Source: Clostridia bacterium (GTDB lineage: Bacteria; Bacillota; Clostridia; Oscillospirales; CAG-272). From it: a stretch of 64,000 nt of DNA. Positions within the stretch are counted from its first letter, which is position 1, and the number at the start of each line of letters is the position of its first letter. The notes beneath the pieces are model-generated. The model was not told where the DNA came from and made no database searches. It worked only from the letters and a program-made list of their open reading frames with translations. Shown one piece after another: positions 4,753 through 32,447 of this stretch. The stretch spans positions 3,497 through 67,496 of the forward strand of contig JAFTKN010000010.1 in NCBI GenBank assembly GCA_017453255.1, written 5' to 3'. The translations under genes and the position numbers were made by a program.

Positions 4753-4753
4753 A

Positions 4754-8614: not shown

Positions 8615-8917
8615 ATGCCAAGCAGTAAAGCATATTTAGGATTTGTTTTAGAACAGTGTAATGGTCTTTCAGCTCGTGCTATGATGGGCGAATATGTGCT
8701 ATATTATGGTGGCAGGGTAATCGGTGGTATTTATGACAACCGATTGCTCGTAAAGATTACACCCTCTTCTATAAAAATCTTGGAAAACGCACCCAAGGAA
8801 CTACCATATGAAGGTGCAAAGGAAATGCTCCTTGTGGAAGATATAGAGAATAGAGAACTTTTAACAACTCTGTTCGAATTAATGTACGAGGAACTACCCG
8901 AACCGAAGAAAAAATAG
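8615..8917 (+). CDS. TfoX N-terminal domain protein
   Basis: MPSSKAYLGFVLEQ...RAMMGEYVLY...GGIYDNRLLVK...PYEGAKEM pattern. Confidence 0.85.
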   Translation: MPSSKAYLGFVLEQCNGLSARAMMGEYVLYYGGRVIGGIYDNRLLVKITPSSIKILENAPKELPYEGAKEMLLVEDIENRELLTTLFELMYEELPEPKKK

Positions 8918-8922
8918 GAGAA

Positions 8923-10251: not shown

Positions 10252-10437
10252 AAAATACCCCTAAAATCCATGTAGGATTTCATGTGGTCTTGATAAAATT
10301 CCATTTTGCATAGTCACTTGTAACGAGACATTATGTGAGAAATTGCAAGAATTTTTGCCAAATTTGAAGAAAAATCGGAGGTTTTGAAAAGCCTCCGATT
10401 TTGTGTTTTATTAGAAAGAGTATGAGATATGCAGTCA

Positions 10438-10869
10438 ACCCCAACTATTAGTCGTTGCTTTTGCTAGCCCTTTTTACTCCGTCTAGCAAATAGCCTCATT
10501 ATAGATTTGGAACGATAAATAGCTCTTTCCACAAACCAGAAACTTCTTGCTGATTGCTTAATCACCTGCACTTTTTAATTTGTATAAATACCTATTTCTT
10601 CGTTCTAAATTTGTGAACAATCTATGCCACACAATAGGCAAGTGAATTCCAATAGAGAAAGAGCAGATATATACTATTCCAAGCCTTTGTCTGTTGGGAT
10701 GTGCTGTCTATTATGCTTCATAGACGCGTTCAATCGGGTACAACGAGGCTAGTCCAGAAAAATTGTCAAAACCGTCCCGTCCTGTCCATTGTCTCCACCT
10801 CTCCAAACCACAAAATAGGCGACCCTGTGGTCAATTTCCAAAATTAAATATTTCACATGTGGTCAAAAA
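10438..10869 (+). repeat. Direct repeat, left copy (10438-10486 + 10750-10869), interrupted by a ~260-bp insert
   Basis: Matches 12824-12872 (2 mismatches in 49 bp) and 12880-13000 (about 120 bp, few mismatches). Confidence 0.9.
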
Positions 10870-10914
10870 GTCAATCCCCAAGATGTCGCCTAAAGCCTTT
10901 TGGGGATTGACTTT
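10867..10914. terminator. 15-bp perfect inverted repeat downstream of hipA
   Basis: AAAGTCAATCCCCAA (10867-10881) / TTGGGGATTGACTTT (10900-10914). Confidence 0.65.
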
Positions 10915-10923
10915 GTTTAATAT

Positions 10924-10959
10924 CAAACTCAAAATTTGCTATGCAGTAAGCAAAGAAAA
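10924..10959 (+). repeat. 30-36-bp module-boundary motif, copy 1
   Basis: CAAACTCAAAATTTGCTATGCAGTAAGCAAAGAAAA; other copies at 13234 and 14835. Confidence 0.8.
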
Positions 10960-10975
10960 GTGGTCAAATATTAAA

Positions 10976-15310: not shown

Positions 15311-15486
15311 TATCATAAATATGGCAAGACTGCGAAAAGTTATGATAAACTTGTCAACGACTAAACTGGCACAAAACTATTGTAATTACATGAAAACACC
15401 CCATAAATCGACAACAACTCTTGCAACCAAGTATTTATTATGTTATAATATTCTTGTATAATTATAAATTGGCAAGGAGAATTATT

Positions 15487-15681
15487 ATGCAAGAGATTAA
15501 CCAATCGCCTGAACGCTGGTATTCGACAAAGGAGATTTGTGTTTATTTGGGCGTCAGTCGTGATACAGTACTTACATGGATAGCTGAAAAAGGATTGCCG
15601 GCACATAAAGTTGGACGAAATTGGAAATTTAAGCCGAGCGAAGTGGATGAATGGGTAAAAGCTGGAAAGGCGTCGGTGTGA
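15487..15681 (+). CDS. Excisionase-like (MerR/HTH_17) DNA-binding protein
   Basis: WYSTKEICVYLGVSRDTVLTWI...LPAHKVGRNWKF; AAGGAG RBS; first gene of the defence operon. Confidence 0.85.
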   Translation: MQEINQSPERWYSTKEICVYLGVSRDTVLTWIAEKGLPAHKVGRNWKFKPSEVDEWVKAGKASV

Positions 15682-15684
15682 GCA

Positions 15685-16923
15685 ATGAATTATATTGATT
15701 TGTTTGCTGGCGCAGGTGGCTTATCAGAAGGCTTCATTCAAGCGGGATTTGAACCTGTTGCCCATATCGAAATGAACAAGGATGCTTCTGATACATTGAA
15801 AACAAGAACGTGCTATCATTACTTGAGAGCAAATGGCAATTTAAGGAATTACAAAAGATATCTACAAGGCAGAATAACAAGAGAGCAATTGTATGCTTTA
15901 GTTCCAGCTGAAGAATTAAATTCAGTTTTAAATGTTGAAATATCAGAGAAAACAATAAACGGTATTTTTGATGATGTAGACGAGCTTCTTGCGAGAAAAG
16001 CCGATTGGAATAATGAAGTAGATGTTATCGTTGGTGGACCTCCGTGCCAAGCATATTCTTTGATAGGACGAGCTGTTAAAGATGACAACATGGTAGGAGA
16101 TCCCAGAAATTTCTTATATAAGATGTACTGTAGATTTTTGAATAGATACCGCCCCAAAATGTTTGTTTTTGAAAATGTACCCGGTTTAAAAACAGCGAAA
16201 AAGGGAGAATATTTTAGAAATTTACAAACTTATATGAAGCATGTGGGATATCGCATAGAAGCAAGAGATTTAAATGCGTGTGAATATGGTGTTTTGCAAA
16301 GCAGAAAAAGAGTAATTATTGTAGGTTGGAGAAACGATTTGGATCTTGGATTTCCAAACTTAGCGGCTGTTGCTCACAATTATACAGTGAATGACATTTT
16401 GTATGATTTGAGGGCTATCGAGCCGGGTAAAGAGGATAATAGATATAAACCTGTTAAAAGAAGTCCTTATTTAGGTGCTTTTGGCATTAGAGATAATGAT
16501 GATGTTCTAACTTGGCATGTTGCTCGACCTCATATTGATAGAGATAGAAAAATATATAGAAAAGCGATAGAGTTATGGAATGATGGACACAAACGCTTGA
16601 ACTATAAGAGTTTGCCCAAAAAATTAAGAACACATAAAAATGTAACCGCCTTTCTTGACAGATTTAAGGTTGTAGAAGGCGACACGGCTACTTGCCATAC
16701 AATGATGGCACACATATCAAAAGATGGACATTATTTTATCCATCCAGATATTAATCAAGCAAGATCAATAACAGTGCGAGAAGCGGCAAGAATACAGTCG
16801 TTCCCTGACAATTATTATTTTGAAGGAAGCAGAACAGCCGCTTTCACACAAATAGGAAATGCGGTGCCACCTTTAATGGCGCAAGCAATAGCAACAGGAA
16901 TCAGAAATTTATTGGAGAATTAA
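15685..16923 (+). CDS. DNA cytosine-5 methyltransferase (DrmMII-like position)
   Basis: DLFAGAGG, GGPPCQ, FENV, QSRKR, QIGNAV motifs. Confidence 0.95.
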   Translation: MNYIDLFAGAGGLSEGFIQAGFEPVAHIEMNKDASDTLKTRTCYHYLRANGNLRNYKRYLQGRITREQLYALVPAEELNSVLNVEISEKTINGIFDDVDELLARKADWNNEVDVIVGGPPCQAYSLIGRAVKDDNMVGDPRNFLYKMYCRFLNRYRPKMFVFENVPGLKTAKKGEYFRNLQTYMKHVGYRIEARDLNACEYGVLQSRKRVIIVGWRNDLDLGFPNLAAVAHNYTVNDILYDLRAIEPGKEDNRYKPVKRSPYLGAFGIRDNDDVLTWHVARPHIDRDRKIYRKAIELWNDGHKRLNYKSLPKKLRTHKNVTAFLDRFKVVEGDTATCHTMMAHISKDGHYFIHPDINQARSITVREAARIQSFPDNYYFEGSRTAAFTQIGNAVPPLMAQAIATGIRNLLEN

Positions 16924-16925
16924 TA

Positions 16926-18980
16926 ATGAGTAAAGACATTACAATAAACGAGTTTTATGGGAAGTTTAGTGAAGAAATAGCTGTGGCACAAGATGCCGAG
17001 ACATTTGGCTGGGAGCCACGAGATTTCTTCACAGCTGTTATGCTTGGTTATTTGGAAGAAGCAGGTGTGATCGAAGATCCTATAATTTGTCCTTTTAAAG
17101 TAAGCGGTTTACAAATGAACGCTTATCATATTTCTGAATCATTTGAAGAGGTTGATATTTTTGTTAGTGTGTATAATGCAAATGAAACTCTTTCATCAGT
17201 TTCAAGAACAGATATTGATGCTGCTATAAAAAGAGCTATTCAACTTTATAGAAGAGCAATAAGCGATTTGTATATATCATTTGAAAAAGATAGTGATACT
17301 TATGAATTTGCCATAACATTACATAACGCAAGAGAAAAAATAAAAAAAGTCAGAATTATTGCATTAACAAATGGAATAGTGAAAGCTATTCCGTTTGAAA
17401 AAATTGATTTGGCGGGAGTTGAAGTATCTTTTTCTGTTTGGGATATCGATAGGCTTTATCGCTGTACGACATCTGGTAAAATGAGAGAAACAATTGAAAT
17501 TGATTTTCTTTCATCGTATGGTGTGACGATTCCCTGCATTGAAAATGCCACGTCCAATGTATATAGTGTATATCTTGCAATTCTTAACGGCGAACTGTTG
17601 GCACGCATTTATGAAGAACACGGTCCTAGATTACTCGAGAGAAATGTTAGGTCTTTTTTACAAGTGAAAGGTGCTGTAAATAAAGGTATAAGAGATACTT
17701 TAAGAGATGAGCCGGATATGTTCCTTGCTTACAACAACGGAATAAGTGTAACCGCGGAAAGCGTTGATGTAGTTCGTGATGATAGCGGAAAAACTTCAAT
17801 CAAGAAAATTCGCGATATGCAGATTGTTAACGGAGGTCAAACAACTGCTTCTATATATAACGCTTGGAAGGATAAAAAGCTAGATGTAGATCTAAGCAAA
17901 GTGTTTGTGCAGATGAAGCTGTCTGTGATAAGTACATCATCTGCTATGGATGAAATTGTGCCAAAGATATCTGCGTTTGCAAATACTCAGAATAAAATCC
18001 AGATGGCGGACTTTTCTGCAAACGATCCGTTTCACAGGAAAATTGAAGAACTCTCTCGTATCACTTGGGCACCTGCTCAAGGAGGTCAAAAACCTCACAA
18101 TTGGTTCTACGAAAGAGCAAGAGGACAATATGCTGATATGCTTTCAAAGGAAACAACTCCACTAAGAAGAAAGGCATACAAAGAAACTCATCCATTGTTC
18201 ACAAAAACTGATTTGGCAAAATATGAGAATTCGTGGGATCAAATACCATATTGGGTGAGCGAAGGCGCTCAAAAGAACTTTAAAAAATTTACCATTCGCT
18301 TGGCAGAACGCGGAAATTTTATTCCTGATGCAAAATATTACGAGAGATTAATAGCCAAAGCAATTTTGTTCCGTAGAACGGAAAAACTTGTACAGCAACA
18401 GCAATATGGTGGATATCGTGCGAATATAGTTACCTACACAATTGCATATCTGTCTTATGCCACGGGACAAAGAATAGATCTTGATACTATATGGAAGAAC
18501 CAATCTTTGTCACCAGCACTTGAAGAAAACATAATTGAAGTATCAAAGTTTGTGCAACAGATTATCGTTAACCCTCCGGGAGGGGCGAATGTAGGAGAAT
18601 GGTGCAAAAAACAACAATGCTGGAGCGCGATTAAGGAGTATGATTACAAAATAACAGATGGATTACAAGCCGAGCTTGCTGATCCATCGGATAAATTAAA
18701 TGTGGTTTCTTCTTCTGGACAAGCATCGACTTCCTCACTTAATGTTGCTACTGTTGAGGAAATAACTGTTATTGACAGAGTATATGAAATACCAGCGGCA
18801 GAGTGGTTTTTGCTTGTAAAATGGGCGAAAGAAACTAATAATTTCCAAGGATGGCAAAGGAGCATATTGTTTACTGTAGCACAATTGATTGCAAGAAAAC
18901 ATAAGCCATCATACAAGCAAGCGATTCATGCTATGAAATTATACGAAGAAGCTATTGATAAGGGGTTTAATAAATTTTAA
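16926..18980 (+). CDS. AIPR-family protein
   Basis: LLERNVRSFLQ, FLAYNNGI, QIVNGGQTT, NTQN and WFYERARGQY motifs. Confidence 0.9.
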   Translation: MSKDITINEFYGKFSEEIAVAQDAETFGWEPRDFFTAVMLGYLEEAGVIEDPIICPFKVSGLQMNAYHISESFEEVDIFVSVYNANETLSSVSRTDIDAAIKRAIQLYRRAISDLYISFEKDSDTYEFAITLHNAREKIKKVRIIALTNGIVKAIPFEKIDLAGVEVSFSVWDIDRLYRCTTSGKMRETIEIDFLSSYGVTIPCIENATSNVYSVYLAILNGELLARIYEEHGPRLLERNVRSFLQVKGAVNKGIRDTLRDEPDMFLAYNNGISVTAESVDVVRDDSGKTSIKKIRDMQIVNGGQTTASIYNAWKDKKLDVDLSKVFVQMKLSVISTSSAMDEIVPKISAFANTQNKIQMADFSANDPFHRKIEELSRITWAPAQGGQKPHNWFYERARGQYADMLSKETTPLRRKAYKETHPLFTKTDLAKYENSWDQIPYWVSEGAQKNFKKFTIRLAERGNFIPDAKYYERLIAKAILFRRTEKLVQQQQYGGYRANIVTYTIAYLSYATGQRIDLDTIWKNQSLSPALEENIIEVSKFVQQIIVNPPGGANVGEWCKKQQCWSAIKEYDYKITDGLQAELADPSDKLNVVSSSGQASTSSLNVATVEEITVIDRVYEIPAAEWFLLVKWAKETNNFQGWQRSILFTVAQLIARKHKPSYKQAIHAMKLYEEAIDKGFNKF

Positions 18981-18995
18981 CAAGGAGGAAATGTT

Positions 18996-21578
18996 ATGCT
19001 TTCATGGAATGAATACATAAAGGAATTGCTGTCAACTAAAACTGTATTAGATGATATGTATTTGCAAAATGGCAATACAACTGTGTCGCCTATTGTAAAA
19101 GCTAGTATTCAAATGCTTGAAAGCATGATTGAAACAGAAGGTCCTCATAATGTATTTGTTTTTCCGGAAATTAAAGAATTACTGTACGAGTTCGTTATTT
19201 CTAAGATAGTTTTTAATGTATCAGCAGGAAAAATCAATATAAATTACGATCCGCATTCTTTTCAAAAAGGTCAAAAGTTAAAATATAAAAACTGCATAGT
19301 AAAATTCAACAGGTATGTAGAGAACGATTTTGATGGCAAAGAAAGAATTTATATAGAATTTGCCGATGGAGGAACACGAGGATTACCACCTAAAATTGCA
19401 CCAATATTCCAAATTGTTGATTCTGAAACAAAGCGTTTTTCTAAAGAAAAGGCTTTTGATGAAGTGTATTCTGCCCAAGAAGCACTTGAAGAATTAGAGT
19501 CTATTACAAAGCATTGTAATATTGTAGAAAATTTGAAAGATTATAAGACACATCTTGACGGATCAATATTTTTAGTGACAAACATGAGAAATGCTAAAGA
19601 ATATTTTGATCAAGCATTAATAAACGGAACACCGATGAAAGATGTTCTTTTAATTGGAAAGGTACAAGGCGATGGAAGTGTTGACAGTTGTTATGCAGGT
19701 CAACTTTCTGGAAATCCAGCGATTGTTCTTGTTAATGATTTGTATTCAATACAAAAGGCTATTGAGCACGGTGCCAGAGCACAGTCTGTTATTATTAATT
19801 CTTCATACGGCAATATAATAGAGAATCAACTAGACGTGTTAGATGAGTTGTCAAGCGAAAGCTTTCCGATTTTGTGTCTAACAGATACTAACAATTCGTT
19901 TAATTTGGATGTTCTTTTTGATCGCTGTTATAACATATGGCGCTGGAATGAGAAGAGTTTAGTTGACGAAATACACACTTCTGGACTTAAAACTGCGGGG
20001 TACAGAATAAAGAACTGTGCTGTGCAGAAACTTACATACGAAAAAGTGTCTAGCCTTGAAATAAGCGAGGCACTTCAGTCCTTGTATGCACATAAGAACA
20101 CAATAGAAGAACAAGGGACAAATGTAATAGCGACTTATAACAAACTCTTTTCGCTTTTGTTTACATCTTTAAGATCTGCTATTCCGTTCGAGAGAGAAGA
20201 ACAGTTTAGAGTTCAAAATGTACTATATGAGTGTGAATTTGTATTAAATCAGTCGAAAAGATTTATGAGTCAATCACTGTATAACGATTTGATGAAGGTC
20301 ATAACTTGTTATGAAAAGGTCTTCACAATGACTTTCGAGAATCCTAAAGTCTTAAAAATGTCCGAAATTATATCATCTAAAAAATATTCTTCCGTATGCA
20401 TTGTCATAACAGATCGAATGGATAAAGTGAAATGTGAAGAATACTGGAGAAACTATGCTGTTAGAAAACATAGCCCTACAGTTATAAAAGTGTTATATCC
20501 GCAAGAGTATGCTAACTTCAATGCGGTAAAATACGATGCTACAATTATAGTCGGATGGTTGAACAGTAAAAACATGAGAAATATCATTTATTCTTATGGT
20601 ACAGCTGAATATATCGTATTAACATATGATTGTGAAGAAAAATGGAAAAAAGCACATACAAGGGTTTGGAACAAGGCGTTAGCTAATAGTAGCAATAAAA
20701 ACATTGTGAAAAATTCGTTTAGCAAAACGGCGCAAGTTGAAATATCAGACGAAAGATTTGTCGAAAAATCGGCTATGGTTCATGAGGATACATTCGATGA
20801 ATTGACCGATATAGAGGCATTGATTCAAAGAAATATGTATAAGCAATATGGAGTTTCTAACAATGGTCAGAATCAGGTTGTGGAAGCTTATCCGATCAAT
20901 TTTGTTGGTGGAAATCTTTCCCTCTATAGAACTGGTCATAAAATTGTCACAGTAACAGACATTGTTGTTGACGGCAAGGAAAACGTGTCATTAAGAACTC
21001 CAGATGAACTACAAATTGGTGACTTTGTCGTAGAGAGAGAAGCTCAAAGAGATATTATAAAAGATATAGCAGATAAAATACTCGAAAGAAGTGGCATGTC
21101 CGATGCAAGAACGATAGCGATGCGATGGAAAGAGTCTTTAAATGTAGAAACAGCGTTCGCGTCGTTAGACGTTATTTATCATAATCTTAAACTTCATGGA
21201 TGTTCTCGTGAGTATCAAACTGTAAGAAATTGGATAGAGAATGAGGATCAATTTTCACTATCCAGCAAAGAGGATCTTATTTGTATCGCAAAAACCCTAG
21301 ATGATGAATTATTATTAGAATCAATCGACGAGGTTTATGTTGCGGGTCAAAATGTTAAGCGAGCTCACGTTATGGCAGGGCAGTATTTATCTCGCAAGTT
21401 AAGGGTTCAAATTGCAGAAAGAATTTCTGAATACGGAGAGATAGATCCATTTAATATTTGGGATCCAATAGAACTGCAAATTGAAGATATTGGAAAAGTG
21501 ATAATTTTGAAGATTATTGACATCAATCGTCCGATTTTTGTTGATATGGGTAATACAAACAGATTACTATCTGAGTGA
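18996..21578 (+). CDS. Large hypothetical protein, probable DrmE-like DISARM component
   Basis: 860 aa without a recognisable catalytic motif; position upstream of drmA/drmB in an operon with a C5 MTase fits class II DISARM DrmE (inference from context and size). Confidence 0.55.
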   Translation: MLSWNEYIKELLSTKTVLDDMYLQNGNTTVSPIVKASIQMLESMIETEGPHNVFVFPEIKELLYEFVISKIVFNVSAGKININYDPHSFQKGQKLKYKNCIVKFNRYVENDFDGKERIYIEFADGGTRGLPPKIAPIFQIVDSETKRFSKEKAFDEVYSAQEALEELESITKHCNIVENLKDYKTHLDGSIFLVTNMRNAKEYFDQALINGTPMKDVLLIGKVQGDGSVDSCYAGQLSGNPAIVLVNDLYSIQKAIEHGARAQSVIINSSYGNIIENQLDVLDELSSESFPILCLTDTNNSFNLDVLFDRCYNIWRWNEKSLVDEIHTSGLKTAGYRIKNCAVQKLTYEKVSSLEISEALQSLYAHKNTIEEQGTNVIATYNKLFSLLFTSLRSAIPFEREEQFRVQNVLYECEFVLNQSKRFMSQSLYNDLMKVITCYEKVFTMTFENPKVLKMSEIISSKKYSSVCIVITDRMDKVKCEEYWRNYAVRKHSPTVIKVLYPQEYANFNAVKYDATIIVGWLNSKNMRNIIYSYGTAEYIVLTYDCEEKWKKAHTRVWNKALANSSNKNIVKNSFSKTAQVEISDERFVEKSAMVHEDTFDELTDIEALIQRNMYKQYGVSNNGQNQVVEAYPINFVGGNLSLYRTGHKIVTVTDIVVDGKENVSLRTPDELQIGDFVVEREAQRDIIKDIADKILERSGMSDARTIAMRWKESLNVETAFASLDVIYHNLKLHGCSREYQTVRNWIENEDQFSLSSKEDLICIAKTLDDELLLESIDEVYVAGQNVKRAHVMAGQYLSRKLRVQIAERISEYGEIDPFNIWDPIELQIEDIGKVIILKIIDINRPIFVDMGNTNRLLSE

Positions 21579-21591
21579 GGAAATTGTAAAA

Positions 21592-23337
21592 ATGGCTAGA
21601 ATGATTCCTTCGGTTCTTTCGCCGGAAATTAAAAGCAATGCGGAAAGAAAAATATTTGAGTGGTTTAGAGACGACCCAGAGACAGAAGGCTGGGTGGTGC
21701 TTCACTCGCTTGGTATAGCAAATCATAGAACCGTGTTGTATGGCGAACTTGACTTTTTTGTCATAGCGCCAAGACTCGGTGTTTTTGCATTGGAAGTTAA
21801 AGGTGGCAGAGTAAGTTGTAACGAAGGTGTCTGGTCTTTTACTAACAAGTACGGAAAGACTACATCAAAAACAAGAGGTCCATTTGCGCAGGCAAACGAG
21901 GGCATGTTCAGTCTTATTGATGCCGTAAAGCTTAAATTTGGTCAACGGCACAGATTGAGCAACTTGCTGTTTGGCACAGGAGTTGTATTTCCTGATATTG
22001 AGTTTCAAGTGGATGGAACTGAAGGAGAGCAGTGGCAAGTATTTGATATGAGAGACGGAATGGCTGTGGGTAGTTACATTCGTCGTCTTTCTCAAAATGT
22101 CAAACGCAAGTGGGAAGAGCAATTTGGTTATTTTCCTGAAGATAAATTACCAGATGCTAAGGATGTAAAAGAACTGGCATCGATGCTTCGTGGTAACTTT
22201 GATAAAGTAATGTCCATTGGTAAGAAAATTGCTTATGCAGAAGAAGCTCTTATTACACTTACTGAAGAGCAATTCCGTTGCCTTGATCAACTGGAAGATA
22301 ATCCGAGGTGTTTAATTCGCGGTGCCGCAGGTACTGGAAAAACCTTACTTGCGATTGAAGAAGTAAAGAGATCTGTGGCTCTTGGGCAAAAAGTTGCATT
22401 TTTCTGTTATAATTCAATGCTTGCGAATTGGCTAAAGTTGCTATTTGAAGATGTTGTCCCAGAAATGCAACCAGCATTTATTGGAACAATTCATTCGTGG
22501 TTGCTTCAGGTGGCAAATAGTGCAGGTGCTAATATAAGACCTGGAATTGACGAACTTGATGAGTTCTATAAAAAAGAGTTGCCCCTATTAGCTCTTGACG
22601 CGCTAGATCTATGTCATGTAAGTTACGATAAAATTGTCATTGATGAGGCACAAGATATTCTAGGAACGGATTCGTTTGAAGTTCTGGACGCTGTGTTAAA
22701 GGGCGGCTTGGAGCGTGGAAAATGGGCTATCTTTGGAGATTTTACAAGACAAGCTATCTATCAAAATGCAGATAAAGTAGATGACATAATTGAGAAACTT
22801 GATAATCGCACTTCGTTTATCAGATTCAAGTTGAAAATCAATTGTCGTAATACCAAATTCATTGGTGATGAGATCAAGTGTATAACTGGATTTGATAGTG
22901 GAGCTTACATATGGTCAAAGATTGAAGGAGTGCCTGTTGAGCATAAAATTTTTAGTTCTCAAGACGAGCAGAAACAGCAACTAGAAGATTTAATTTGCAA
23001 GTTGATTGCGGATGGTATTTCTGCTGAAAATATAACCATCCTTTCTCCTTACAAGCGAGAAAACTCTGTTGTTGCAGATATATCTAATGTGAAAATAAAA
23101 GATTACACTCCTAAAACCGAGGGGAAAGTTACTTTTAGTACGATTCAAGCATACAAAGGTCTTGAAAACACTGTAATCATAATGACAGACATTGAGTCGT
23201 TTGAACATGAGCAACTTATGTACGTTGGTCTTAGCAGAGCAAGAAGTGGATTGTTTATTTTGGAGTCTAACGGAGCAAGAAAAGAGTATTTGAATATTCA
23301 AAAAAGGAGGTTTTTAGAAGATGGATACAAGGCGTGA
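21592..23337 (+). CDS. NERD nuclease-related domain fused to a UvrD-like/SF1 helicase
   Basis: LHSL...GELDF...LEVKGG (NERD), GAAGTGKT, IDEAQD, NCRNT, TIQAYKGLE, YVGLSRA. Confidence 0.88.
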   Translation: MARMIPSVLSPEIKSNAERKIFEWFRDDPETEGWVVLHSLGIANHRTVLYGELDFFVIAPRLGVFALEVKGGRVSCNEGVWSFTNKYGKTTSKTRGPFAQANEGMFSLIDAVKLKFGQRHRLSNLLFGTGVVFPDIEFQVDGTEGEQWQVFDMRDGMAVGSYIRRLSQNVKRKWEEQFGYFPEDKLPDAKDVKELASMLRGNFDKVMSIGKKIAYAEEALITLTEEQFRCLDQLEDNPRCLIRGAAGTGKTLLAIEEVKRSVALGQKVAFFCYNSMLANWLKLLFEDVVPEMQPAFIGTIHSWLLQVANSAGANIRPGIDELDEFYKKELPLLALDALDLCHVSYDKIVIDEAQDILGTDSFEVLDAVLKGGLERGKWAIFGDFTRQAIYQNADKVDDIIEKLDNRTSFIRFKLKINCRNTKFIGDEIKCITGFDSGAYIWSKIEGVPVEHKIFSSQDEQKQQLEDLICKLIADGISAENITILSPYKRENSVVADISNVKIKDYTPKTEGKVTFSTIQAYKGLENTVIIMTDIESFEHEQLMYVGLSRARSGLFILESNGARKEYLNIQKRRFLEDGYKA

Positions 23338-26300
23338 GCAAATCATTGATATTGTAACGCGTGAATTTATAGGTCCCGATCCCATTAATAAGCCTGGAAT
23401 GATACAGGAAAACGGAGAAGAAATCTTATCTTCCGATCCTCCTCGCATTAGATATGCTGCAGGTATACTGTTTCCTCAAAAGGTGAGTATTGATAGCAAC
23501 ACCGCAGATGAAAATTCTGAAGTCGTTGAGAACGATACGCCCGATATGTCTGCAGGCGATGAGCCTGAAAGGCATGGTGGTACAAAGGAATATTTGGCTG
23601 ATGCTGAGGAGATGATAAATCTATCAAATGCGTATCAGCAATCCGCGATCAGCATGACAGCAGCGGTATTAGATAGTGATACATTGATTGTAAATGTTTC
23701 TGCCGGAATGTACTCTTCGATAAAAGTTGCAGATCCGGAAACTGGTATTGAGCATGTCAAGTATCCGAGAATTCCGTTGAATTGGAATAATAATGGAATG
23801 CCAATTGATCTCCCCGATGAGACTACCGGAATTAAAAAATATCGTGTTATGCATGGTGAGCAAGAAACGCGCCTCGTGTTTGCTATCACATACAGATACA
23901 AGTATGATGGGTATTCGCTCTATACTTTTACACTTCAAAATGATTTGATTTGCGAGACTTCTATTAGGGATGAGGATTGCTATTTCCAAGTGCAATTCGA
24001 TTTGATATCCGAGCAAGGATTCTCTCCTATGCCGGAAACTGAAAAGCTTACAAGCGATAACGACTATCTGTCAAACCAAATGCTCTATAGGAATATCAAG
24101 ACCTATGCAATTGGTCACGGCTGCGCTGCAAAGTGGGATGAAAATGAATTCCCAGTAAAGAAGCTTTCAACATCCATTTTTCCGATGCATGAGATAAAGC
24201 CCATTGTTCCGAGTAAAATTGACGGCGTTTCTCTTGAAATGTATAAAATGTCCGATTATGGAAACAAAGAAGAGACTATTTCTGAGTTGACCGCTATGTG
24301 CGAGAAATATGCAATATGGATAAATGGACTTTCAGAAAAAGTATCTACAATTAATGACAGAGGAACAGCGATTAGACATATTGAAAATTGCAGACGTTGT
24401 TTGAAACGTATGAAGGAAGGCGTTGAACTTTTAAAGAACGATGCAGATGTTTTGTTTGCATTTCAGCTCATGAATAGAGCTATGTTGTTACAACAGTTGC
24501 ATTATAATTTACCGTTGCAAAAATGGGTTTGCGAAGATGGAAATACCATTCATCTTAAAAATCCAGTAGAAGTTCTTCCGGATGTGAGCAACCAAGAAAC
24601 TTGGTACGGAGATAAAAGTCGTTACGGAAAATGGAGACCATTTCAGCTTGCGTTCGTTTTAATGAACCTTAAGTCTATGGCTAAAAGAAATTGTAACGAA
24701 AGATCAATCGTTGATCTTATATGGTTTCCTACCGGAGGTGGTAAAACAGAGGCATATCTTGGACTATCTGCATATACCATTTTCATAAGAAGGATTAAAA
24801 ATAAGAATAACGCAGGTACTGCTATATTGATGAGGTATACTTTGCGCCTTCTTACATCACAGCAGTACGAACGGGCAGCCGCGATGATATGTGCATGCGA
24901 TGTAATTCGAAAAGAGTTTGAGGATAAACTCGGCAAAAATCGTATCTCAATAGGTCTCTGGGTTGGTGATGCGACTACACCTAATACAATGAAGAAGGCT
25001 GTAGATGCCTACAAAAAAATTTATCGAGATGGTTCTGTAAGTGAAAACAGCCCTATTGTAATTCTGAAATGTCCTTGGTGTGGCGCCCAAATGGGAGTTG
25101 TGCCTACTGGCAAAACGTATAAAATACCAGGATACAAAAAGGTGCCTGATGGCAGAAAAGAGAAGCTAATATTACAATGCGAAAATAAGGAACATGGTTG
25201 TGAATTTTCAAAGATTGGATTTGAACTTCCTCTGCAAATAGTTGATGATGATATTTACGCGAATCCTCCGACTCTTCTTTTGGGAACAGTTGATAAGTTT
25301 GCGATGCTTCCGTATCGTCCAGAGGCTCAAACTTTGTTTGGAATCAAAAATGGCAACCGTGTAACTGCTCCAGATCTCATTATTCAAGACGAACTTCATT
25401 TGATATCAGGACCTCTTGGCTCGATGGTCGGTCATTATGAAACAATGATTAACGAGCTGTGTGCGTATGAGAAAGACGGTGTTCGTATACAACCTAAGAT
25501 CATAGCATCTACGGCTACTATTAGCCGCGCAAGTGAGCAATGTAAGGCACTATACGGTTGTCCAACTGAAAATGTAATGCAATTTCCACCGCCGGGTCTT
25601 GAAGCGGGAAATTCATTCTTTGCCGAAGAGGATAGAGAAGCAATTGGAAGAATGTACGTTGGTGTGTTTGCTGCTGGTTCTTCTTCAATTGCAACTACGA
25701 CTATACGTTTATATGCTACATTGTTATATGCAGCCAAGGCTATTTCAGTTAAAAATGAATCAGACAGAGATGGATATTGGACCAATGTAGGATACTTTAA
25801 TAGCATTAGAGAGCTTGGACAGACGGAAACGTGGATTAAAGCAGATATTGATGAGTATCTTCATGTAATCTATAAAAGACGTTATGAGGATAAAGAAGAG
25901 GGATATAAAGAGAATAGACGCTACATTTATAAAGACGAAGAATTAACGAGTCGTGTAAGTAGTGATAAGATTCCGTTTAGCCTTCAGAATTTAAGCTATG
26001 AATATCCTATGAGTGCTGAAGATAAACGTCCAGTGGATATTTGTTTGGCAACTAATATGATTTCTGTTGGTGTTGATGTTCCAAGACTTGGTTTGATGAC
26101 TGTGTCGGGACAGCCTAAAACAACATCAGAATATATTCAAGCTACGAGCCGTGTAGGTAGAAACAAAAAGGCGCCTGGTTTGGTATTTACAATTTATAAT
26201 CCAGGAAAACCAAGAGATAGGTCTCATTATGAGCATTTTGAAACATATCATTCAAGGGTGTACTGTAATGTTGAGCCTACAAGTGTTACCCCTTTTTCTG

Positions 26301-26701
26301 CTCAGCTACGCGAACGCGCACTACATGCGATAGTTTTTGGTCTTCTCCGTTTGAGAGGAGATAATAATTTAAATGCTGATCCGCCTAAATTTCCGAGTTT
26401 GGAAAAAATTCAAGAGATTAAAGACATTATCGCAGAAAGAATCGAGGCGGTGGATGTTGATGAATTAGAAAAAACATTAGAGCATATTGATAGCATTGTT
26501 GAAAAATGGAAACGCGAAGAACCGGGAAAATATCAAGATTTTGGTACAGGTGAAGTATTACCTTTGATGTTTCGTGCAGGAGCAATGAGAAATGCCACAT
26601 GGGGAAAACGAGGATTTCCCACACCAACATCTATGAGAAATGTAGATGCGTCTTGTGAAGCAATGGTGTTAGAAAACGGATACTTCGAGGAGGATGAATA
26701 A
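23321..26701 (+). CDS. drmA: DISARM helicase DrmA-like (SF2)
   Basis: WRPFQLAF, FPTGGGKTEAY, RYTLRLLT, QDELH, ATNMISVGVD, QATSRVGR; immediately upstream of the DUF1998 gene. Confidence 0.85.
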   Translation: MDTRREQIIDIVTREFIGPDPINKPGMIQENGEEILSSDPPRIRYAAGILFPQKVSIDSNTADENSEVVENDTPDMSAGDEPERHGGTKEYLADAEEMINLSNAYQQSAISMTAAVLDSDTLIVNVSAGMYSSIKVADPETGIEHVKYPRIPLNWNNNGMPIDLPDETTGIKKYRVMHGEQETRLVFAITYRYKYDGYSLYTFTLQNDLICETSIRDEDCYFQVQFDLISEQGFSPMPETEKLTSDNDYLSNQMLYRNIKTYAIGHGCAAKWDENEFPVKKLSTSIFPMHEIKPIVPSKIDGVSLEMYKMSDYGNKEETISELTAMCEKYAIWINGLSEKVSTINDRGTAIRHIENCRRCLKRMKEGVELLKNDADVLFAFQLMNRAMLLQQLHYNLPLQKWVCEDGNTIHLKNPVEVLPDVSNQETWYGDKSRYGKWRPFQLAFVLMNLKSMAKRNCNERSIVDLIWFPTGGGKTEAYLGLSAYTIFIRRIKNKNNAGTAILMRYTLRLLTSQQYERAAAMICACDVIRKEFEDKLGKNRISIGLWVGDATTPNTMKKAVDAYKKIYRDGSVSENSPIVILKCPWCGAQMGVVPTGKTYKIPGYKKVPDGRKEKLILQCENKEHGCEFSKIGFELPLQIVDDDIYANPPTLLLGTVDKFAMLPYRPEAQTLFGIKNGNRVTAPDLIIQDELHLISGPLGSMVGHYETMINELCAYEKDGVRIQPKIIASTATISRASEQCKALYGCPTENVMQFPPPGLEAGNSFFAEEDREAIGRMYVGVFAAGSSSIATTTIRLYATLLYAAKAISVKNESDRDGYWTNVGYFNSIRELGQTETWIKADIDEYLHVIYKRRYEDKEEGYKENRRYIYKDEELTSRVSSDKIPFSLQNLSYEYPMSAEDKRPVDICLATNMISVGVDVPRLGLMTVSGQPKTTSEYIQATSRVGRNKKAPGLVFTIYNPGKPRDRSHYEHFETYHSRVYCNVEPTSVTPFSAQLRERALHAIVFGLLRLRGDNNLNADPPKFPSLEKIQEIKDIIAERIEAVDVDELEKTLEHIDSIVEKWKREEPGKYQDFGTGEVLPLMFRAGAMRNATWGKRGFPTPTSMRNVDASCEAMVLENGYFEEDE

Positions 26702-28555
26702 ATGTCAAAACAAAATAGACCTATGCGACGTAGCGCATTAATTAGTCCTTGGGGTGTAGGAGCTATTGTTCCGTTTGTAAATGATGAATCTCTTATGATA
26801 GCAGGTCTTGATATGTGGCACTATCATACAACCGATCCGTTTGTCATTAAAGATGAACGTTTGCAGAAACGCTTAGGCGTGAAGGAACTTAGATGGCCAC
26901 CAGATTTTAGAGACTATGAGACTGATACTGAAAACTGCAATTTGAAGATTCCAGCAGTTCGTTTCCCAAGATGGAACTATTGTCCGTTCTGTGGAACAAT
27001 GCAAAGGGTTGGACTGTTTACGAAACAACCTAAGTGCGATGCATATCAATGGCCACACGGAAGAAAATGTGATGCTTCCAAAAGGTATCGTCGTAGCTTA
27101 ATTCCTGAAAGATTTGTTGTTGTATGTCCGGAAGGTCATATCGATGATTTTCCTATTGCTGAATGGATACATGCTGATAGTGGACATGTTTACAACGAAC
27201 ACACATGTCGTATTCGCCGTAGCACAGGTGGTACATCAGCGGCGCTGACCGGAGTACGATACGAGTGTTCTTGTGGAGCTTCAAGGTCAATTGCAGGTGC
27301 TTTACGTCCTGGTGCGTTAAAGTCCATCGGATATAAGTGCAAGGGTGGCAAACCTTGGCTTGGTGTAGAAGAGGATTTAGAGAACCCTTGCAAATGTGAG
27401 GATGCATCTCAATTAAGAGTACTTCAACGTGGAGCGAGTAATGTTTGGTTTGCTGATACTAGAAGCTCAATTTATATTCCTACTGAAGATGATGCTTTGA
27501 CCCGCAGAATGGTTGAAATTGTTAATGATCCAAGAAATTTAAATTATGTAATGAGTCATCGTGTGAATGGCGAATTGGATTACGATATAGTTGCAATGAT
27601 CGCTGAAATGGAGGGTGGTGTTAGTCCTGATGATTTGTTTTTGGCTTTTAAAAATAAAATAAACAACATTGAAGGACTTCCAGAAGTCACAGAGGAAATG
27701 TCAGAGGATGAATATAGACTGGCAGAATATAAGATGTTAACAAAGAGCTCCGGTGGAGATGCTTTGGATTTTCACTCTGTGAATTATTCTATAAGCAGAT
27801 ATCATTCTCGTATTCAAAAACTTTTCAAAAGTATATCTTTAGTGAAAAAACTTAGAGAAACTCGTGCATTTGTTGGATTCTCTCGTTTGCAACCTAATAC
27901 TTCTACTAAAATCGAAGATAAAAAGGCTATGCTTCGATTAGGAAATGGTAGTTGGTTACCTGCAATAGAAGTATATGGTGAGGGAATATTCTTTGAATTC
28001 TCATCTGACGAATTAAAAAAATGGGCAGAAAAAGAAGAAGTAAAAGCGAGATTGGCACCTCTTGATTCGGCTTACCAACAGTCATTCTTCGGAAAATCGA
28101 ACCCGGGCAACCTCAGAGCTGAATATGTTTTGTTACATACATTTGCCCATCTTATTATTAACCAACTTAGTTACGAGTGCGGTTATGGTAGTTCCTCAAT
28201 CAAGGAGAGAATCTACTGCGAAAAGTGTAGTGATGATCTGGAAATGTGCGGCGTGCTAATCTATACAGCTTCTGGAGACTCAGAAGGTTCACTTGGTGGA
28301 CTTGTTCGAAGAGGCGAACCTGGAAAACTAGAGGATACAATTATTGCGGCGTTGGAAAATGCAAAATGGTGTTCTTCGGATCCAATTTGCATAACTTCTC
28401 TTGGTCAAGGACCAGAATCTCTTAACAGAGCAGCCTGTCACAACTGCGCACTTCTTCCGGAAACATGTTGTGAGTGTGGTAATCGACTTCTTGATAGGGG
28501 ATTAGTGATTGGTGAATTAGAAAACAAGAATATTGGCTACTTTTCAAACATTTAA
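26702..28555 (+). CDS. drmB: DISARM DrmB-like DUF1998 protein
   Basis: SPWGVGA start, CPEGHIDDFP, LLHTFAHLII, GSLGGL, ACHNCALLPETCCE. Confidence 0.88.
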   Translation: MSKQNRPMRRSALISPWGVGAIVPFVNDESLMIAGLDMWHYHTTDPFVIKDERLQKRLGVKELRWPPDFRDYETDTENCNLKIPAVRFPRWNYCPFCGTMQRVGLFTKQPKCDAYQWPHGRKCDASKRYRRSLIPERFVVVCPEGHIDDFPIAEWIHADSGHVYNEHTCRIRRSTGGTSAALTGVRYECSCGASRSIAGALRPGALKSIGYKCKGGKPWLGVEEDLENPCKCEDASQLRVLQRGASNVWFADTRSSIYIPTEDDALTRRMVEIVNDPRNLNYVMSHRVNGELDYDIVAMIAEMEGGVSPDDLFLAFKNKINNIEGLPEVTEEMSEDEYRLAEYKMLTKSSGGDALDFHSVNYSISRYHSRIQKLFKSISLVKKLRETRAFVGFSRLQPNTSTKIEDKKAMLRLGNGSWLPAIEVYGEGIFFEFSSDELKKWAEKEEVKARLAPLDSAYQQSFFGKSNPGNLRAEYVLLHTFAHLIINQLSYECGYGSSSIKERIYCEKCSDDLEMCGVLIYTASGDSEGSLGGLVRRGEPGKLEDTIIAALENAKWCSSDPICITSLGQGPESLNRAACHNCALLPETCCECGNRLLDRGLVIGELENKNIGYFSNI

Positions 28556-28562: not shown

Positions 28563-28598
28563 AAAACCTTGCTTGAACGAACATGATGGCAAGGTTTT
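28563..28598 (+). terminator. Terminator closing the DISARM-like operon
   Basis: AAAACCTTGC / GCAAGGTTTT inverted repeat. Confidence 0.65.
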
Positions 28599-28721: not shown

Positions 28722-30020
28722 ATGGTTGCAAGTTATAAAAAATTATTTAAATTGTTGATTGATCGAGAGATGAAAAGTAAAGATCTTGCTTTAAAAGCTG
28801 GAATCAGTCCAGCTACTCTCGCAAAAATGAAAAAAGATGGAGCAACGGTCTCAAGCGATGTATTGGTAAAAATTTGCATGGCTTTAGAATGCACATTAGA
28901 TGATATAATTGAAATAATATCGGTGGATAAACCAAAACCGGTCATCGCTGGACCTAAAAAATTTAAGTTGGGAGAACTTTTCTGCGGTCCTGGCGGTATT
29001 GCTTGCGGTGCGATGAGAGCAAAAAGTGCAGATGGAAGATTTGTGATTGAGCATGCATGGGCAAACGATTATGATGCAGATACTTGCGAAACATATAGAA
29101 AAAACATTTGTCCGGATGCTCCTCAAACTGTATATTGTGGAGATGTAAGAGAACTTGATATTAAATCTCTTGGTGAAATAGATGCATTCTGTTACGGCTT
29201 CCCGTGTAATAGCTTCTCAAATGTAGGCAAACATCAAGGACTTGAAAACGAGAAGTTCGGACAGCTCTATTGGTATGGAATAGAGGTGCTTAAAATTTAC
29301 AAGCCGAAGTGGTTTGTAGCAGAAAATGTTTCGGGAATCCGTTCAGCTGGTTCTGGTGATTTCGATATTATCCTTAACGATATGAGAGAAGCTGGATATC
29401 GCTTGAATGTGAATCTATACAAGGCAGAGCAGTATGGCGTTCCTCAAACAAGACACAGAGTGATAATCGTTGGAATCAGAAATGATTTGCCGATAGAATA
29501 TAGAGTGCCAGATCCTGCGATGTATACAAATTGCGATGTGTCTTCGAGAACTGCACTTGCTGATATACCAACAACGGCTACGAATAACGAGGTTAGAAAA
29601 CTGACCAAAGACGTGGTAAGAAGGTTGTCGTATATTCGTCCTGGCGAGAATATTTGGCAAGCAGAAGAAAGACTCGGAGACAAATTCCCAGATGAATTGA
29701 GAATTCGAACGAAAACGAAGATCAGTCAGATTTATCGCAAGCTTGATCCCGACAAGCCTGCCTACACCGTGACGGCATCAGGTGGCGGTGGAACGTTCAT
29801 GTATCATTGGACAGATAGGGAATTGACCAATAGAGAGCGGGCAAGAATACAAACCTTCCCTGATAATTATGAGTTCGTAGGAAATTATAGTAGTGTAAGA
29901 AAACAGATTGGAATGGCGGTTCCGTGCAAACTTTCGGAAATAGTCATAACTGCGGTACTAAACTGCTTTGCAGGTATTGAATATCCGTCTGTAAAAGCAA
30001 ATATGGAGGAGCAAAAATGA
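28722..30020 (+). CDS. HTH-fused DNA cytosine-5 methyltransferase
   Basis: N-terminal Cro/C1-type HTH (SYKKLFKLLIDREM...ICMALECTLDDI) then ELFCGPGG, GFPCN, AENV, QTRHR, QIGMAV. Confidence 0.92.
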   Translation: MVASYKKLFKLLIDREMKSKDLALKAGISPATLAKMKKDGATVSSDVLVKICMALECTLDDIIEIISVDKPKPVIAGPKKFKLGELFCGPGGIACGAMRAKSADGRFVIEHAWANDYDADTCETYRKNICPDAPQTVYCGDVRELDIKSLGEIDAFCYGFPCNSFSNVGKHQGLENEKFGQLYWYGIEVLKIYKPKWFVAENVSGIRSAGSGDFDIILNDMREAGYRLNVNLYKAEQYGVPQTRHRVIIVGIRNDLPIEYRVPDPAMYTNCDVSSRTALADIPTTATNNEVRKLTKDVVRRLSYIRPGENIWQAEERLGDKFPDELRIRTKTKISQIYRKLDPDKPAYTVTASGGGGTFMYHWTDRELTNRERARIQTFPDNYEFVGNYSSVRKQIGMAVPCKLSEIVITAVLNCFAGIEYPSVKANMEEQK

Positions 30021-31096
30021 TACCAAAATTTGATGATATAACAAAAAATCCAACTTTTATTACAGATGATTTTGATGAACCTGTTCTTTACGCTCCTGCA
30101 AGAATTGAACTTGCTCGTCCATGTACATCATTAAAAATTATAACTGCCTTTACCGACTGTGAAAGAATATCTACACATATGATTCATCTTGCGGAAGGAA
30201 TTAAAAATAATAGATTTTCGAAAGGTCTTTCCGTCGAAATTTTGCTTGGCATGACTAAATCCAGTCTTTCACAGAAAAAACATGAAGACATTTGCCGTAT
30301 GATCGGTTTTTTGAATAGTTCTAAAGGTATGCCGAAAATTTCATGCAGATATATTTGTCAGGGTCCAGAGGTACATTCAAAAGTGTATATCTGGACAACT
30401 CCTGATAGCGAAGTTGGAGAAATACCATGGTTGGCTTTTTGTGGTTCTTTAAATTATACAATGAATGCTTTTTATAAGCGTAGAGAATCTGTAAGCATGT
30501 GCAATTCACTAGAGGCCTTTTTTTATTACAAGAAACTTCTTACCGATACCATTGATTGCTTTGACCCCGATGTGTCAGAAAAGTTGAAAAACGTAATAAA
30601 CAATACATCTGAGTCTTTTGTAGAACCGGATAATTCCGAAAAGGATTACCTTGTTTATGATGCGGAAACGCCGGTGGATATGCTGACTGTTTCTCTTTTG
30701 AGAGCTGACGGTAGCGATACAGGATACGGTTCTGGAATTAACTGGGGCATTAGAAAGAATGGCACGAAACGAGATCAAAATCAAGCATATATTCCTTACA
30801 ATCATCAAGATAAAAAAACAGGATTTTTCCCTGACAGAATAAATCCCGATGATGAAAATTGCCCTATGTTCAAGGTCATTACCAAAGATTTTGGGTCGTT
30901 CCACATGCGTATGGCTCAACAGGCAAACAAAGCATTACATAGTGTAGAGAGTAATGCAATCTTAGGCGAATGGATTAGAAAGAGAATAGGTGCACCATCT
31001 GGTGGATATGTAACAAAGCAGATGTTGGAACTTTATGGGAAGACATATGTTACATTCAGAAAATATGAGGATGGAACCTATCTTTTGGACTTTTAG
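30017..31096 (+). CDS. PLD-family (NgoFVII-like) restriction endonuclease
   Basis: VHSKVYIW...GSLNYT (HxK...GSxN); C-terminal GSGINWG...QAYIPY domain; overlaps the MTase stop. Confidence 0.75.
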   Translation: MIPKFDDITKNPTFITDDFDEPVLYAPARIELARPCTSLKIITAFTDCERISTHMIHLAEGIKNNRFSKGLSVEILLGMTKSSLSQKKHEDICRMIGFLNSSKGMPKISCRYICQGPEVHSKVYIWTTPDSEVGEIPWLAFCGSLNYTMNAFYKRRESVSMCNSLEAFFYYKKLLTDTIDCFDPDVSEKLKNVINNTSESFVEPDNSEKDYLVYDAETPVDMLTVSLLRADGSDTGYGSGINWGIRKNGTKRDQNQAYIPYNHQDKKTGFFPDRINPDDENCPMFKVITKDFGSFHMRMAQQANKALHSVESNAILGEWIRKRIGAPSGGYVTKQMLELYGKTYVTFRKYEDGTYLLDF

Positions 31097-31103
31097 AAAA
31101 ATT

Positions 31104-31517
31104 ATGATAAAAGAATTAATACACGATCCAATATTTTTGGCTCAAAAATCAGAAAATGCAACGATAGAGGACAAGCAGGTCGCAATTGACTTGCTTGATA
31201 CTCTTGTTGCACACAAGGATAGCTGTGTTGGAATGGCAGCCAATATGATAGGCATTAAAAAGCGAATAATTGCTATAGACAACAATGGTGAGTATATTGT
31301 AATGTACAACCCGGAAATCATCAAAAAAAGCGATCCATACAATACAGAAGAAGGATGCCTATCCCTTCTTGGTGGCCCACGCAAATGCAAACGATATAAA
31401 ATAATCAAGGTTCAATATCAAAACGAGCTATTCAAACAAAGAGTTAAAACATTCACTGGTTTGACAGCACAGATCATTCAGCATGAGTTGGATCATTGTA
31501 ATGGTGTGTTGATTTAA
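31104..31517 (+). CDS. def: Peptide deformylase (short form)
   Basis: GMAANMIG, EGCLS, QHELDH motifs. Confidence 0.88.
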   Translation: MIKELIHDPIFLAQKSENATIEDKQVAIDLLDTLVAHKDSCVGMAANMIGIKKRIIAIDNNGEYIVMYNPEIIKKSDPYNTEEGCLSLLGGPRKCKRYKIIKVQYQNELFKQRVKTFTGLTAQIIQHELDHCNGVLI

Positions 31518-31535: not shown

Positions 31536-32447
31536 ATGGATAATGCTATTTTTTCATATTTAGTGGTTTTTAAGAGTGAAGAGCTGAACTATGAAGGACC
31601 CATCGCACTCTCTCCCACAGGAAACGGTACAATGCATTTATTCGACGAAGAAATGTATCCCACATTAGATGCTTTAGAATTTTTGCTACATATGCCAAGA
31701 AACATCTTTGATATGCATGATATCGATGAAAATTTAATGAATGCATCACATGATACATCTCACGATATTGTGCTCGTGCCGGATAAATTTATAGAAAAGC
31801 TCCCAAATATCAATGCGACTATGATCATATTAACTGATGATTGTCTAGAAGATATAAAAATGAGGTGTGAGAGGTTTACTCCTTTCCTCGGGGTTTATTA
31901 CTCTAGAGAGTTGAATGATGCATTGCTTAAGACTTTGTGGAACAATTTGCACGAGCAGTACAAGTTAAAAGGCTACTCCGTTGTTAGAAACATAGATACT
32001 CAATTAATTCTTCGTGATGAATATATTAAAGCGTTGCCAACGTTGTTTTTGAGTAGGCAATTTGGAGATGTTAATAATTTTTTGGTAAAAATTTATAATA
32101 GTGAAAATCTTGAGGATGCAATAATACAATCTCATTGGCACTGTTTATCACGATTAAACACATTGGTTTCATTAGGAAAACAGGGCGTTACTACTGCTGA
32201 AGAGCTCACTGAACAATATGAGGAACAGTACAAAAAGGAATTCAAAAGCCAGCGTGTAAATGTTGTGATTACATTTCCTGGTATTCCAAAGAGGCAGAAA
32301 ACTTTGGGGATGAATTTAGGACAATTGTCCGATAAAGAGCGCCGTATCATAAGAATTATAGGTGTACATAGAGCAATTGCTCGCAATGGGATACTGGCTG
32401 AACTTTCGATTGCTTCAGAAACACTTTTTCAAGAGTGGTGGGGTTAA
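31536..32447 (+). pseudogene. Hypothetical gene probably truncated by prophage insertion
   Basis: AT-rich ORF ends three codons after the composition switch (...LFQE-WWG*), inside the integrase 3' end. Confidence 0.6.

Follow-up and report, generated by a model that had tools for sequence, protein, structure and literature searches.

The 64,000-nucleotide stretch of a Clostridia bacterium genome analysed here (the window; contig JAFTKN010000010.1 of assembly GCA_017453255.1) carries, at positions 15487-28555, seven tightly packed open reading frames (ORFs) on the plus strand that form an operon of the DISARM phage-defence type. The core of the operon corresponds to class 2 DISARM, and two further genes, coding for an AIPR protein and for a helicase with a NERD nuclease domain, stand within a gene order that recurs in related loci. 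The operon comprises the following features:

15421..15449, plus strand: promoter-like site 5' of the first gene, TTGCAA-17-TATAAT with an extended -10 TG, 10/12 in the consensus scan (a consensus match alone)
15487..15681, plus strand: helix-turn-helix (HTH) protein of the excisionase family, MAD1-like, 64 aa, probable regulator of the operon (Pfam HTH_17, 7e-17; TIGR01764, 68.9 bits, cutoff 28.8)
15685..16923, plus strand: DrmMII, C5-cytosine DNA methyltransferase, presumed to mark self (PADLOC DrmMII, 1e-167; Pfam DNA_methylase, 3e-62)
16926..18980, plus strand: AIPR protein (AIPR_N and AIPR domains), MzaE-like, with no role assigned (Pfam AIPR, 3e-102; AIPR_N, 1e-38)
18996..21578, plus strand: DrmE, 860 aa, fold like that of superfamily 2 (SF2) helicases, without ATPase motifs (NCBIfam DrmE_fam, 4e-110, 369 bits, cutoff 80; Pfam DrmE_C, 28 bits, cutoff 27)
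21592..23337, plus strand: NERD (PD-(D/E)xK) nuclease domain fused to a superfamily 1B (SF1B) helicase, 581 aa, proposed effector (PADLOC RTasNERD-Hel, 2e-45, and NERD+UvrD, 2e-14, both end to end)
23321..26701, plus strand: DrmA, SF2 helicase of the YprA family (PADLOC DrmA, 4e-235; NCBIfam DrmAS, 944.5 bits, just below the cutoff of 950)
26702..28555, plus strand: DrmB, zinc-binding DUF1998/MZB protein, partner of DrmA (NCBIfam DrmB_fam, 454 bits, cutoff 240; Pfam MZB, 31.6 bits, cutoff 24.2)
28563..28598, plus strand: intrinsic-terminator-like hairpin closing the operon, 11-bp stem, 14-nt loop, -12.8 kcal/mol, z = -3.0, U-rich on its 3' side

The junctions between the seven genes measure +3, +2, +15, +13, -17, and 0 nucleotides (nt) in the 5' to 3' direction, the helicase ORF overlapping drmA by 17 nt and drmB following immediately on the drmA stop codon. 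A ribosome-binding site of the GGAG type precedes most of the genes, such as the AAGGAG at 15475 ahead of the HTH gene. All seven ORFs are full length and their catalytic motifs are invariant. The content and span of the operon, with the domain of each ORF, are as proposed in an earlier sequence-only reading of the window, and the terminator lies exactly at the site given there; it was overlooked by a pattern scanner because of its long loop.

The DrmA-DrmB pair of the core DISARM definition is present. DrmA is recognized by Pfam Helicase_C (pfam00271, 27.2 bits against a cutoff of 23.5) and carries the motifs GGGKT472, DELH690, and TAT731, while DrmB is encoded by the separate DUF1998/MZB gene (pfam09369) expected after DrmA and has C-terminal CxxC pairs at 506, 579, and 589. 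The methylase is the C5-cytosine enzyme (pfam00145) that class 2 DISARM requires, with intact catalytic motifs; DLFAGxGG, GGPPCQ, ENV, and GNAVP are invariant in the alignment with its relatives. The HTH protein is 89% identical in two relatives (L001 and L002), and other relatives have a Cro/C1-type HTH in its place. It scores 71.3 bits with the MADS1 model, for which the cutoff is 80, and the proteins of the operon match none of the remaining MADS models; the operon is therefore not assigned to MADS.

The 860-aa protein, called DrmE-like in the sequence-only reading, is a true DrmE, since the DrmE_fam match covers positions 2-838 of the 838 in the model; together with DrmE_C it supplies the DrmE that class 2 DISARM requires. 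The check proposed there was to use PADLOC and profile models, and it came out divided: the NCBIfam and Pfam models match, but the PADLOC DrmE models detect neither the window protein nor the related DrmEs. Because of this, loci of this kind may escape typing as class 2 DISARM by PADLOC. In a Foldseek search, the AlphaFold2 model of DrmE (pLDDT 75.6, pTM 0.62) retrieves the SF2 helicases RIG-I, LGP2, MDA5, Hef, XPB, and Mfd, with E-values down to 4e-6 and a probability of 1.0. Neither the GK[ST] P-loop nor the DExH motif is conserved in 13 members of the family, and DrmE therefore has the shape of a helicase and lacks the customary ATPase site.

The nuclease-helicase starts at the ATG at 21592, which gives the 581 aa found in all orthologues, and not at the upstream TTG at 21517. 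Its invariant residues include E52, D54, F55, and E68-V-K70 of the nuclease domain (GE-x-DF...E-V-K), the Walker A motif GTGKT247-251, and the Walker B motif DEAQ351, such that the PD-(D/E)xK and SF1 ATPase motifs that define NERD nuclease-helicases are both in place. The PADLOC models AbiO (1e-11) and Nhi (9e-10) also match. In four more distant relatives (L066, L067, L068, and L051) the helicase gene stands directly 3' of DrmB, the slot usually occupied by DrmC. A role as the effector of the system, which the sequence-only reading had raised for the inserted genes, is in the case of the nuclease-helicase a well-supported proposal in view of the intact nuclease motif and of these relatives in the DrmC position.

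The AIPR protein matches the MzaE model at 442 bits, which is below the equivalog cutoff of 1050 (PADLOC MzaE, 1e-98), and the PADLOC AbiU model at 4e-28. Across the relatives it is 60-85% identical and thereby better kept than DrmE (34-73%). Its invariant core, which includes IRDMQIVNGGQTTASI, has the predicted form beta-strand-NGGQT-helix, and would fit the published link between AIPR and DndB's N-terminal domain (PMC3506569). The AlphaFold2 model is of moderate quality (pLDDT 68.5, pTM 0.36), and a sequence search of solved structures returned nothing for AIPR, for DrmE, or for the eighth gene described below. The closest AIPR outside DISARM, at 45-48% identity, is the MzaE of a genuine Mza operon (L065); that locus holds a complete Mza system at 2067-11590, composed of a C5-methyltransferase, a nicking endonuclease, MzaB, MzaC, MzaD, and MzaE.

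No gene for DrmC, the phospholipase D (PLD) nuclease (pfam13091) expected after DrmB, is found in the operon. The missing drmC had already been pointed out from the window alone, and the absence proves to be wider: a genome-wide PF13091 search of the source genome (1.76 Mb, 96.8% complete) gives no PLD protein of the DrmC type, returning only two double-PLD proteins resembling cardiolipin synthase and an NgoFVII-type enzyme, and no DrmC occurs in any of the related loci of the lineage that were examined. A regular-expression scan of these loci for the HKD motif produced only incidental matches inside other genes; its sensitivity is incomplete, as it missed an NgoFVII-type PLD in L061.

Several PLD proteins were considered as DrmC and rejected. 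The one encoded at 30017-31096, 1.5 kb downstream, joins an NgoFVII-type PLD to a B3-like DNA-binding domain, has its own HTH-C5 methylase partner, and is set off from the operon by the terminator and by a promoter-like site of its own; it shows no relationship to the NgoFVII-type PLD beside the operon of Sedimentibacter (E 0.14). The protein at 5050-6615 has two PLD domains and resembles cardiolipin synthase, and at two loci without AIPR (L057 and L058) the neighbouring PLD proteins of about 790 aa belong to the type IV methyl-directed restriction enzymes.

The neighbourhoods of DrmE homologues at 72%, 65%, 48%, and 42% identity, 23 loci of species-representative genomes, and three loci reached through AIPR homologues were mapped by tblastn. 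The order methyltransferase-AIPR-DrmE-helicase-DrmA-DrmB is kept in about 35 related loci, in at least four phyla (the isolate Sedimentibacter sp. B4, and metagenome-assembled genomes (MAGs) of Bacillota, Bacteroidota, Pseudomonadota, and Actinomycetota), with DrmE identity as low as 34% and in unrelated flanks. The hosts include Clostridia, Lachnospiraceae, Oscillospiraceae, Syntrophomonas, Phascolarctobacterium, Muribaculaceae, and the cultured Sedimentibacter, together with MAGs whose labels read Proteobacteria and Actinomycetes.

Across 18 non-redundant loci, the pairwise identities of DrmA correlate with those of DrmB at 0.97, of the helicase at 0.96, of DrmE at 0.90, of AIPR at 0.81, and of the methyltransferase at 0.69 (Mantel p about 5e-4 for all). 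In the trees of DrmB (careful search) and DrmA (quick search), all loci with both AIPR and helicase form one clade, which a branch with 100/100 support and a length of about 2.3 parts from the canonical-type DrmE systems; the window-type DrmA and DrmB are about 33-40% identical to those of the canonical type. The loci without AIPR (L018, L057, L058, and L019) or without the helicase (L028 and L019) are nested within this clade and are therefore secondary losses. In an unbiased sample of 401 genomes of the phylum, DrmE_fam is found in 13, the sole AIPR matches of at least 67% identity come from the two other DISARM loci, and the nine helicase matches examined at 32% identity or more adjoin DrmA/DrmB without exception. 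The sequence-only reading made its case depend on AIPR and the nuclease-helicase being conserved with drmAB, and this is borne out by the shared order, the co-divergence, and the single deep clade.

In 14 of 26 readable loci an eighth gene, of about 331-346 aa and 45-67% identical among loci, lies directly 3' of DrmB:

L001:15806-16801, and also in L003, L004, L007, L010, L012-L017, L023, and L064: eighth gene, directly after DrmB

The eighth gene gives no match in Pfam, PADLOC, or the PDB sequences, and is absent from the window and from its whole genome; the 303-aa ORF at 31536-32447 of the window was rejected as a counterpart, having no similarity to it. A weak similarity (26% over 120 aa) to the type IV methyl-directed restriction enzyme neighbouring L057 hints at a possible reader of modified bases. 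The slot after DrmB is otherwise variable, holding an McrBC-like pair (AAA_5 and DUF2357/PDDEXK_7) in L005:19552-22562, a GIY-YIG PDC-S14 gene in L006:13706-14638, Vsr in Sedimentibacter (L061:22012 onward), and a separate restriction-modification pair in the window. The more distant loci L066:9115-19607 and L067:790-11304, and also L068, are composed of an Hsp70-like ATPase (478 aa), a UvrD-like helicase (about 795 aa), DrmA, DrmB, and the NERD-SF1 helicase, with the Hsp70-like and UvrD-like genes of L066 and L067 in the stead of DrmE before DrmA. These three loci give no DrmE_fam match, and no methylase is present among the ORFs examined.

Split or decayed operon genes were encountered among the relatives, namely drmA in L007, L009, L059, and L061, drmB in L002, and both AIPR and the helicase in L019; the cultured Sedimentibacter sp. 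B4 copy has its drmA in two ORFs. Such genes could reflect real inactivation of a costly system or errors of MAG assembly, some of them possibly the latter because most of the relatives are MAGs.

What the analysis shows directly is the gene content, the intact motifs, the conservation, the co-divergence, and that the layout arose once. In light of these, we consider it probable, with a fair margin of doubt, that the locus is intact and probably functional, and that it belongs to a distinct, monophyletic DISARM lineage of the class 2 type without DrmC, in which the NERD-SF1B nuclease-helicase and the MzaE-like AIPR are ancestral parts of the operon. The co-divergence, the phylogeny, and the 401-genome sample argue against AIPR and the helicase being embedded passengers, and thus against their presence being incidental.

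A number of observations weigh against this assignment. The Pfam NERD model has no direct match to the window helicase and detects two of ten orthologues (L052 at 5e-11), so that the NERD call rests on the orthologues and the invariant motif. In the fold search with the AIPR model no match reached significance (best E about 0.5); the top hits, the PD-(D/E)xK nucleases FokI, HamA, and Shedu, are suggestive at most, and echo the remark that AbiUi resembles FokI (PMC13064643). Neither a conserved catalytic triad nor the Rx4-6H motif of HEPN proteins is found in the AIPR N-terminal domain, for which family a HEPN prediction has been published (PMC3506569). With the fold search insignificant, AIPR is a weak candidate for the effector. 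Among the 12 other loci of the sample that carry DrmE, 11 have no DrmC, the exception being L054, and therefore the absence of DrmC in itself demands no replacement nuclease. AIPR is lacking in L018, L057, and L058, the helicase in L028, and only remnants of both persist in L019; as the AIPR-less and helicase-less loci are otherwise intact, neither gene is strictly needed to keep the rest. Finally, since about half of the relatives carry the eighth gene, the window copy may be incomplete.

One alternative is that an ordinary class 2 core without DrmC (methyltransferase, DrmE, DrmA, and DrmB) hosts two independent defences, an AbiU-like AIPR and an Nhi/AbiO-like NERD-helicase, which share only its transcription. 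Genes nested in DISARM, BREX, and type I restriction-modification systems are common and usually constitute separate defences in the same orientation (Payne et al., 10.1101/2024.01.29.577857), and AbiUi alone gives modest protection (PMC13064643). That proteins of the AIPR/AbiU and NERD-helicase (Nhi, AbiO) types can act singly as defence genes also counts against our assignment, and the Nhi and AbiO matches of the helicase, as well as the loci devoid of one gene or the other, would agree with this picture. However, such cassettes vary between relatives, and here position and identity are fixed in about 35 loci of a single-origin layout. The helicase moreover co-diverges with DrmA as closely as DrmB does, its relatives down to 32% identity still adjoin DrmAB, and its ORF runs into drmA. 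We regard independent embedded defences as unlikely.

A second alternative divides the operon into two cooperating modules, with HTH, methyltransferase, and AIPR as a reduced methylation module of the Mza or restriction-modification (RM) type and DrmE, helicase, DrmA, and DrmB as a separate machine, AIPR being the partner of the methylase and not of DrmAB. AIPR does abut the methyltransferase, its nearest relative outside DISARM is the MzaE of an operon headed by a C5-methyltransferase (L065), AIPR/AbiU1 is a known associate of RM systems (PMC3506569), the AIPR-less loci keep the DrmE-helicase-DrmA-DrmB part whole, and the correlation of AIPR with DrmA is below that of the helicase. Yet AIPR tracks DrmE (0.91) better than the methyltransferase (0.76), it remains beside DrmE in L025, where the methyltransferase has shifted to the 3' end, and MzaA-D are absent from the window operon, which makes this division improbable. 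That the operon is inactive or incomplete, perhaps a decaying or non-functional island remnant for want of the eighth gene, is very improbable despite the split genes (drmA in L007 and L061, drmB in L002) and the decay (L019) in relatives, because none of its seven ORFs is truncated, their catalytic motifs are invariant, and whole sub-clades, e.g., the Lachnospiraceae loci, lack the eighth gene and yet have intact operons.

Returning to the assignment as a DrmC-less DISARM lineage with ancestral AIPR and nuclease-helicase, the following mechanism can be envisaged. DrmMII, judging from its family, would methylate host cytosines and so mark self. DrmA-DrmB, aided by the helicase-shaped and presumably ATPase-dead DrmE, would load on phage DNA that is unmethylated or has single-stranded ends, a step proposed on the basis of the class 1 DrmAB structures (PMC9142583) and the class 2 genetics. 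The NERD-helicase, translationally coupled to DrmA, would then be recruited or released to unwind and cut the phage DNA, and could thereby take over the job nominally given to the dispensable PLD protein DrmC. AIPR, a methylase neighbour as in Mza, might read the modification state or act as a second effector of the abortive type, which is the least certain step, and the HTH protein may be a regulator of the controller type.

The operon lies in a defence island abutting a prophage. The GC content is 32-40% over window positions 1-32.4 kb and about 49% from 32.4 kb on, where a serine-recombinase gene on the minus strand (32415-34055) opens the prophage. Upstream of the operon there are hipBA, HTH genes, and an RNase III-like gene; downstream of the terminator follows a separate type II restriction-modification pair, which has a promoter-like site of its own:

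28722-30020: C5 methylase with a fused N-terminal Cro/C1 HTH
30017-31096: NgoFVII-type PLD endonuclease with a B3-like DNA-binding domain

A peptide deformylase gene (31035-31517) lies in the interval from the restriction enzyme to the border of the prophage, an odd site for a gene of the housekeeping type; as called, it overlaps the 3' end of the enzyme gene by about 60 nt.

The prophage (window 32500-64000) displays an extreme and broad avoidance of restriction sites. The observed and expected counts are 1 and 165 for CCGG, 0 and 100 for GGCC, 1 and 91 for GATC, 0 and 34 for CATG, and 0 and 47 for GGACC; CCWGG is likewise absent (0), and the classical site of NgoFVII, GCSGC, occurs in abundance (174). 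The avoidance is far too broad for the target of DrmMII to be read from it. In the host-like part of the window (1-32400), GGCC is also rarer than expected (5 observed, 35 expected, z = -7), and its scarcity suggests a GGCC-specific restriction system in the lineage.

In both classes of DISARM that have been tested, the only predicted nuclease, DrmC, is dispensable; class 2 does require drmA, drmB, and drmE (10.1101/2021.12.28.474362). A widespread lineage without DrmC but with a nuclease-helicase that has intact active sites and whose inheritance parallels that of DrmA and DrmB offers a concrete candidate for the effector, and through AIPR it ties DISARM to the Mza system. It is conceivable, though on the whole doubtful, that the layout represents a self-standing third class of DISARM, in which the NERD-SF1B protein is the missing DNA-destroying effector, coupled to DrmA/DrmB via the pseudo-helicase DrmE, and the MzaE-like AIPR reads cytosine methylation to license the attack. 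If this holds, the occurrence of the helicase in other DrmAB operons, after DrmB or together with the Hsp70-like and UvrD-like genes, would mark a broad, unrecognized family of DrmAB-plus-nuclease-helicase systems.

The claim of a third class is unproven; the layout itself is a conserved and apparently undescribed branch of DISARM. The literature searched (DISARM with AIPR, DrmE, or NERD; class 3; DISARM-like), which fell short of most subscription journals, contains no description of it, in line with the uncharacterized variant surmised by the sequence-only reading. A 2025 survey of YprA helicases finds DISARM typically with the PLD protein DrmC and mentions "many uncharacterized DISARM-like classes", the present one not being described.

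Among the known systems, class 2 DISARM of the Bacillus paralicheniformis type (drmE, drmA, drmB, drmC, and drmMII; Ofir et al. 2018, cited after 10.1101/2021.12.28.474362), which protects against phage and in which losing the methylase is toxic, shares with the window the separate DrmA and DrmB, DrmMII, and DrmE. The window differs from it by lacking the PLD protein, by the additional AIPR and NERD-SF1 helicase, by the methylase at the 5' end, and by a DrmA and DrmB that belong to a separate deep clade. With class 1 DISARM (Serratia sp. SCBI; cryogenic electron microscopy of DrmAB, PMC9142583) only the DrmA-DrmB helicase core is shared, as that class has the SNF2 protein DrmD and the N6-adenine methylase DrmMI and is without DrmE, AIPR, and the NERD-helicase. 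The Mza system (C5-methyltransferase, nickase, and MzaB-E) likewise has an AIPR protein in an operon headed by a C5-methylase; no gene of the window matches MzaA-D, however, and with its AIPR below the MzaE equivalog cutoff the operon is not a member of that system. ARMADA type II (ArmA-D) is a tested precedent for a YprA-family helicase that needs an SF1 helicase, the GajB/UvrD-like ArmD, with an N-terminal domain of the nuclease type (PMC12458937), but its YprA helicase is fused to DUF1998, its methylase is PglX-like, and its SF1 helicase bears a RelE-like RNase instead of NERD. The stand-alone NERD-helicase defences (PADLOC Nhi, AbiO, and the DRT-associated NERD-Hel) and AbiU consist of the same types of domain, whereas in the lineage of the window both genes are fixed in a seven-gene operon and co-diverge with DrmAB.

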